Origin: Eledone cirrhosa
Taxonomy: Eukaryota
DNA: 64,000 nt
Reading direction: 5' to 3'
Assembly: GCA_964016885.1 (NCBI GenBank)
Contig: OZ024759.1
Span: 3,100,001 to 3,164,000 of the forward strand
Below the pieces are notes generated by a model, which worked only from the letters and a program-made list of their open reading frames with translations, was not told where the DNA came from and did not search any database. The translations under genes were made by a program, and so were the position numbers. Of this stretch, positions 43,425-44,517 are shown piece by piece (position 1 is the first letter of the stretch; every line of letters begins with the position of its first letter).

Positions 43425-44517
43425 CTACCGACATATGTATACAGATGCATACCTATGCTAGCAAATATATATGTTTTGTCTTAGTAACTTTGTGGTTCTA
43501 TGCAGGGGGATGCAGAACAATTATATGAAAGACGTAAATAAGAAAGTTATGAAAATTGACTTACTTACTAAAATTTCACTCCAACTAATTAGTTTCTGTA
43601 AGGGGATAAATATAGTTACGTAATATAACTATAGAGAAACCTTACGTCATCAGGGAGTCTATTCTCAGCTAAGCTTCCAGGCAATGCGGGAACACTGGGA
43701 ACTTATATAAAAATAATTCAGTGGATGGAAAAAAGCGAGCGGGGCTAGATTCCAAGACATTGAAAAATTCACTGCCTACTTGGTCAAGTGGCAAATTCAA
43801 AAGAATCAATCACGTGACACCGAGGTTAATCAGCTAGGAGTGGGGGTGCTATTAAGACAGAGCCTAGCCACTACTATCAGTCACAGTAGTAATTTCGGCA
43901 AATTTTGCTCAACAAATAATTTGGAGATAATTATAAAGAATTAGGAGTGAAATTTTATTAAGTAAGTCAATTTTCATAACTTTCTTATTTACGTCTTTCA
44001 TATAATTGTTCTGCATCCCCCTGCATAGAACCACAAAGTTACTAAGACAAAACATATATATTTGCTAGCATAGGTATGCATCTGTATACATATGTCGGTA
44101 GATATATTAATTCTTTATAATTATCTCCAAATTATTTGTTGAGCAAAATTGCCGAAATTACTACTGTGACTGATAGTAGTGGCTAGGCTCTGTCTTAATA
44201 GCACCCCCACTCCTAGCTGATTAACCTCGGTGTCACGTGATTGATTCTTTTGAATTTGCCACTTGACCAAGTAGGCAGTGAATTTTTCAATGTCTTGAAA
44301 TCTAGCCCCGCTCGCTTTTTTCCATCCACTGAATTATTTTTATATAAGTTCCCAGTGTCCCCGCATTGCCTGGAAGCTTAGCTGAGAATAGACTCCCTGA
44401 TGACGTAAGGCTTCTCTATAGTTATATTACGTAACTATATTTATCCCCTTACAGAAACTAATTAGTTGGAGTGAAATTTTAGTAAGTAAGTCAATTTTCA
44501 TAACTTTCTTATTTACG

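Follow-up and report, generated by a model that had tools for sequence, protein, structure and literature searches.

A head-to-head retrozyme insertion of Eledone cirrhosa in which one arm begins exactly at the predicted hammerhead cut

The window considered here is a stretch of 64,000 nt of Eledone cirrhosa DNA, and the locus at 43419-44523 is a non-coding retrozyme with a unit of 524 nt from cut to cut, inserted head to head in (TA)n and displaying the anatomy of Penelope-type insertions: an inverted 5'-truncated arm, a microsatellite target and two offset 3' ends. The plus arm (43944-44523, plus strand) starts on the first nucleotide after the predicted cut (+1), runs through a complete 524-nt monomer and about 55 nt of the next one, and meets the (TA)n with its 3' end. 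The minus arm (43419-43943, minus strand) consists of monomer positions 165-524 and then 1-164, which makes one unit length. The 3' ends of both arms point outward into the (TA)n tracts at 43188-43424 and 44523-44558, which are taken as the target; the motif ATATAT at the outer end of the minus arm is common to the left tract, placing the outer boundary somewhere in 43419-43425. The longest ATG ORFs of the unit reach about 50 codons, and in both arms the unit crosses its own cut junction, as expected of a head-to-tail repeat. Each arm contains one complete hammerhead, which is below the two consecutive units asked for in the available text of Li et al. (10.64898/2026.07.22.740005). The arms are 99% identical, with 5 differing positions in about 1,100 nt; this is about the scatter found inside a 312-nt array and gives no ground for inferring separate templates for the arms. 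The minus arm requires positions 165-524 joined to 1-164 and the plus arm 1-524 joined to 1-56, so that neither is a contiguous or fold-back copy of the other; we infer that two separate cDNAs lie behind the two arms. A long predicted hairpin at 44060-44100 (monomer about 105-160) stands just before the priming site at +164 and may be a protein-binding or initiation element.

The predicted ribozyme of the plus arm is a type I hammerhead (44392-44472, plus strand) with stem I ACUCC/GGAGU, the CUGAUGA box at 44397, the GAAA box and a predicted cut at 44467|44468, the position of the cut being set by the standard hammerhead numbering. The conserved CUGANGA and GAAA boxes, the UH (here UU) before the cut and three helices with helix I open are all present: stem I counts 5 bp, stem II, which is long and contains an inner hairpin, 4-6 bp, and stem III, which has a palindromic strand, 3 bp. 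A C-A mismatch stands at position 10.1-11.1, where stem II begins at its base. The second copy (43578-43658, minus strand), whose predicted cut falls between 43583 and 43582, is read through by the minus arm. In an alignment of 4 copies from 2 subfamilies all the named pairs are kept (20/20), both sides having changed in 3 pairs and one side in 1, and the core and stem I are identical across the compared copies; the compensatory changes lend the hammerhead modest support, because only two lineages are compared. The hammerhead region folds better than its shuffles (z -2.7 and -2.9), as does the whole monomer (z -4.0), and no core position is found among the best-supported 40 of the 199 variants in the reads of the family. 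The curated Rfam hammerhead model was not matched at 44392-44472, where the search returned 4 weak unrelated matches only, and a further scan has no hammerhead match among 150 of its 393 rows. Altogether the canonical core, stems I to III and the compensatory changes credibly place the predicted cut site.

According to the sequence-only reading, the plus arm begins at 43944, on the nucleotide immediately 3' of the predicted scissile bond, and is preceded by the end of the opposite arm. Direct reading of the letters bears this out: the plus arm starts with GGAGTGAAATTTT, the intact copy reads ...CTAATTAGTT^GGAGTG across 44467|44468, and the left side of the junction is the reverse complement of the same element. 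The head-to-head junction 43943|43944 is blunt, neither arm being extendable over it by even one base: the position preceding 43944 holds an A instead of the element's T, and 43943 is followed by a G instead of the A that would continue the minus arm. The base-by-base comparison of the arms accordingly reveals neither microhomology nor filler at this point. The exact coincidence of the plus-arm start with the predicted cut is real, and its cause is plausible but unproven. It had also been noticed that the other three arrays of the window are broken away from the cut, which the mapping confirmed, their ends lying at -56/+35 (junction 7065|7066), about +53/+302 (13003|13004) and -41/-56 (18684|18685).

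A second case close to the cut, missed in the first reading, is provided by a Penelope-like element of a family different from that of the 524-nt unit. In this ORF-bearing element (54969-56099) the minus arm carries the ORF end and a terminal repeat, with a hammerhead core on the minus strand at 55260; the minus arm and the plus arm are identical over 213 nt. At the head-to-head junction of the element (55786-55788) a single G whose source is uncertain precedes the plus arm, which starts at 55788, position +2 relative to the predicted cut. Stem I of this hammerhead is weak and is left unfolded by the energy model; like the 524-nt unit, the site has no Rfam hammerhead match.

The test proposed with the first reading, the mapping of breakpoints onto the monomer, was run in the window on 11 head-to-head junctions with a recognisable hammerhead, hand-picked by self-alignment and inspection and representing 22 arm ends and 13,274 nt. 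The long palindromes without a recognisable hammerhead (5289-5478, 100% over 190 nt, and 7840-8112) and roughly ten simple non-inverted 5' ends lie outside these 22; the cut sites of the 31.8 and 54.8 kb family are tentative, and one extra read-through site was missed by the pattern. One end falls on the cut (+1), one at +2 (55788) and 20 elsewhere, whereas the arms continue across 38 cut sites that are intact. With the arrays only, there is 1 stop per 29 cut-site encounters against 8 ends in 9,882 nt, so that stops at the cut are about 43 times as frequent as the average per base (P about 0.023, post hoc). With all 22 ends and a uniform per-base stop rate, the probability of at least one exact match is about 0.064, again post hoc. 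Two ends within one base of the cut among 22 have a P of about 0.017, the range having been chosen after seeing the case, and the +2 case alone, with the discovery arm removed, one of about 0.17 (post hoc). The -56 end shared by two 310-nt arrays is a coincidence of similar strength located away from the cut. The claim that the cDNA reached and ran off the 5' end that self-cleavage gave the RNA is supported in part: the exact blunt end, the credible cut site and the +2 case speak for it, but the count reveals no excess of ends at the cut. One exact case is compatible with chance; a self-cut RNA is its likely origin and chance a possible one.

The head-to-head layout is widespread in the window. 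A sister subfamily with a 554-nt monomer, about 75% identical to the 524-nt unit, occupies 11993-14156 with the same layout, two hammerheads per arm and its junction (13003|13004) off the cut, and two arrays of 310-312-nt units with a different hammerhead are also arranged head to head. In every array the 3' ends occupy two different sites, at about +56/+164, +78/+196, +133/+167 and +134/+167, a pairing that resembles the two initiation sites and the "tail" of Penelope-like elements in the accessible text of two papers (PMC11167929; PMC8557442). The minus arm of the 524-nt insertion (43419-43943) stops beside its own inferred priming site, being the one of the 8 array arms that does so, and its unit length fits what is expected from one round on a circle. 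In the head-to-head array of 310-nt units at 15356-20410 one arm exceeds 10 units and the other 5, and 13 of its 15 full copies are identical over both arms, which suggests a very young insertion and fits the repeated copying of one template. If this array results from rolling-circle copying, the enzyme is able to displace strands and is not obliged to end where it was primed; such strand displacement would weaken the argument drawn from the unit length of the minus arm.

Other arrangements in the window deserve mention. The two arrays of the 310-312-nt family (94% identical) are independent, and in each of them one arm, at 7066 (plus strand) and at 18684 (minus strand), starts at -56 from the cut; a stop site, or another fixed 5' end of the RNA, could lie here. 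By eye, a TCATTC that we take to be initiator-like stands about 5 nt upstream of these starts. At 10730-11150, compared with 33984-34336, the end of the right arm at +85 falls shortly downstream of the 3' end of the left arm, with the loss of about 25 nt, a pattern that looks like twin priming on one RNA. About ten distinct families of type I hammerhead sequences were distinguished by eye, beside (TA)n tracts, most of them with a short palindromic stem III, and nested inverted insertions are found at 54383-56367 and 39110-40018.

Public reads were also aligned to the minus arm. Of the 15 listed runs 4 were used, three being sets of contigs from a single sample and the fourth a RAD run under the same species label; they hold at most 0.60 of the sampled words of the locus and may stem from another individual. 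The unit is dispersed and multicopy in these data (about 2,000 contigs per run in the 3 contig runs, 6,752 reads in the RAD run). Four strand-switch joints, which may or may not be head to head, provide 8 ends at +110, -92, +97, -161, +69, -43, +6 and -263; none of the 8 is at the cut, the nearest being at +6, and the power of the comparison is low. No loose read end lies at the cut among the best 24 of 459. Among the joints listed from the 4 runs, junction 43943|43944 itself is absent, which with such a low share of words neither confirms nor excludes a misassembly. The RAD read-end peak at 43587 (186 of 256 molecules), 4-5 nt from the cut, was considered as a ribozyme footprint and rejected: it sits on AATT, as do 5 of the 6 listed peaks including this one, and the AATT peaks are taken as the restriction ends of the library. 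These read data give no support for a peak at the cut, and at such low power a minor peak is neither confirmed nor refuted.

The reading we favour, to which we give a slightly better than even chance and which is not a demonstration, combines these features in a single insertion event: the plus arm probably starts at the cut because its template was a self-cleaved RNA that a Penelope-type reverse transcriptase copied through to the 5' end. The triggering event would be the cutting of the (TA)n by a Penelope-like protein, both DNA ends then priming on the RNA of the element at internal sites, about +56 and +164. The right-hand cDNA would cross one uncut or religated hammerhead junction and would halt at the 5' end of the self-cleaved RNA. 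The left-hand cDNA would go once round a circular or end-jumped monomer and would halt at its own primer. The two cDNA ends would finally be united without homology, either by end joining or by a template jump.

The principal alternative is that ordinary random 5' truncation, by polymerase drop-off, an RNA break or the trimming of ends, happened to fall on the cut, the templates being uncut multimers or circles. We regard chance of this kind as a genuine but distinctly less probable explanation. The values of P for the exact match (0.02-0.06) are post hoc and very many such stretches were scanned; the 20 ends located elsewhere, the 38 read-throughs and the absence of the 8 read joint ends from the site also speak for chance, and in the available text on the Poseidon element cleavage is dispensable in vitro (PMC11167929). 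Against chance, the plus-arm end is exact and blunt, a second case occurs at +2 in another family, and the minus arm of this insertion likewise ends where the mechanism would predict, at +165, beside its own priming site.

A non-random stop would not in itself require a free cleaved end: the enzyme could stall where the hammerhead junction is folded or where a circular RNA contains an unusual ligation bond, or be halted by a protein block. Circles are indeed the main form of the retrozymes in the animals described in the accessible parts of PMC7229834. Among the other 20 ends, eight are no more than about 45 nt away from a predicted cut, most of them within the fold of the hammerhead (-11, -18, -29, -31, -32, -33, -41 and +35; the left arm at 40939, near +26 by eye, would be a ninth), and one read joint falls at the base of stem I, at +6. 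If stem I caused the stall, the end would nevertheless be expected at about +6 and not at +1, and many short arms end near the hammerhead merely because they are short. RtcB ligation produces an ordinary 3'-5' bond. As this is the ligation proposed for the animal retrozymes (PMC7229834, in the text available), the bond left in the circle would be an ordinary one. A stop of this non-random kind is improbable as the cause of the +1 start.

The formation of the inverted arm by self-priming or fold-back, or of the junction by a later recombination of two copies, is very improbable. Self-priming has been proposed for head-to-head Penelope junctions in the accessible text of PMC3846280, and palindromic centres of such a kind exist in the window (54787); junction 43943|43944 is non-palindromic and devoid of microhomology, and the arms are not contiguous copies of each other, and a fold-back origin of this junction was therefore rejected. 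Slightly less probable still is an assembly artefact in repeat-rich DNA, which the absence of the junction from the joints listed in the 4 runs, the near identity of the arms and the (TA)n on both flanks might evoke, but which is opposed by the 5 differences between the arms, by the eleven junctions of equal layout in the window, each at its own position, and by the possible origin of the runs from another individual.

The element class, the inverted arms and the processing of retrozymes in vivo are already published, and the retrozyme at 43419-44523 is a new example of that class; the comparisons that follow rest on the parts of the cited texts that were available. Animal non-LTR retrozymes, with linear and circular monomers in tissue and a proposed mobilisation by Penelope-like elements (Cervera and de la Pena 2020, PMC7229834; Li, Clavereau and Pollet 2026, 10.64898/2026.07.22.740005), share with the present element a non-coding tandem unit, one type I hammerhead, a low GC content, the co-occurrence with Penelope-like elements and the proposal of a circular template with Penelope-type mobilisation, and 524 nt falls within the reported range of consensus lengths (51-972 bp). 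In contrast, stem II is longer here and contains an inner hairpin, and the published descriptions, in their accessible parts, present neither head-to-head arms nor breakpoints on the cut site. A DNA footprint at this locus would accordingly not be the first evidence of activity in vivo, circular and linear monomers of animal retrozymes being already published (PMC7229834). Hammerheads in Penelope repeats and oppositely oriented pairs 100-700 bp apart have been described together with the proposal of a circular template (PMC4209133).

Penelope-like elements as a rule show inverted 5'-truncated copies, tails and microsatellite targets (Craig et al. 2021, PMC8557442; Arkhipova et al. 2013, PMC3846280). 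In common with the insertions of those bearing an endonuclease, the present locus has an inverted 5'-truncated copy at the 5' end, a (TA)n target and an extension at one end only; it differs from them by the absence of an ORF in the 524-nt unit, by an offset of about 108 nt between the 3' ends instead of 30-40, and by a junction that is blunt and non-palindromic. The closest biochemical system is Poseidon of Anolis, for which the in vitro work of Frangieh et al. (2024, PMC11167929) describes the cutting and extension of both target strands and two internal initiation sites; the proposed cutting and extension of both strands, the two putative sites and the AT-rich target are common to the present locus. 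Poseidon initiates without the need of target homology, whereas here ATATAT is common to the tract and the left 3' end. Furthermore, the uncut RNA is the main substrate of Poseidon in vitro and hammerhead cleavage is dispensable for its insertion, with no RNA reads beginning or ending at the cut site in the parts of the paper available (PMC11167929), whereas one arm ends at the cut here. A precedent for 5' junctions set by a ribozyme exists in Drosophila R2, whose HDV-like ribozyme cleaves exactly at the element's 5' junction (Eickbush et al. 2013, PMC3774820); the ribozyme and the enzyme class are different, and in R2 such a junction is the rule and has been assayed, whereas it concerns one or two of 22 ends here. 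In the literature surveyed, which included few subscription papers and no supplements, we found no map of Penelope-type or retrozyme breakpoints on a hammerhead cut; Fig. S2 of PMC11167929 may bear on the question.

The role of the hammerhead in Penelope-like elements is called unclear by Craig et al. (PMC8557442, accessible text). Could head-to-head insertions of the Penelope type keep a record of the state of the RNA template, one arm having been copied off a linear self-cleaved RNA and the other once round a circle? We advance this idea tentatively and think it rather doubtful. If so, the hammerheads of Penelope-like elements would gain a direct role in transposition, and the breakpoint maps of any good animal assembly would measure the use of cut, circular and uncut RNAs in integration. 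If genomic 5' ends did prove to be in excess at the cut, this would likewise mean that the self-cleaved linear RNA is a template for germ-line integration; one locus only points toward a genome-wide breakpoint count.

Copies of the family of the 524-nt unit had 0 matches in viral contigs and 0 in the contigs of prokaryote genomes, and the 2 metagenome matches, in which only the 21-nt pattern was matched, were set aside as chance. Downstream of the insertion lie broken ORFs resembling a Penelope-type reverse transcriptase and endonuclease (45108-46983, plus strand), which have no DNA match to the retrozyme; the self-comparison of the window found no DNA common to the 524-nt unit and its Penelope-type ORFs. 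Pfam returned nothing for the ORFs at 45108 and 46459 themselves, homologues of the 45108 ORF have weak reverse transcriptase and GIY-YIG matches, and a profile search gave a GIY-YIG match (E 3e-4) at 38274. No viral locus encoding a relative of the reverse transcriptase of the 45108 region was found. In the broken Penelope-type ORFs at 45108-46983, 41216-42100 and 1072-2176, low-complexity stretches rich in Asn, Thr and His stand between the parts resembling the reverse transcriptase and the endonuclease, and are reminiscent of the N-rich inserts reported in the available text of PMC3846280.
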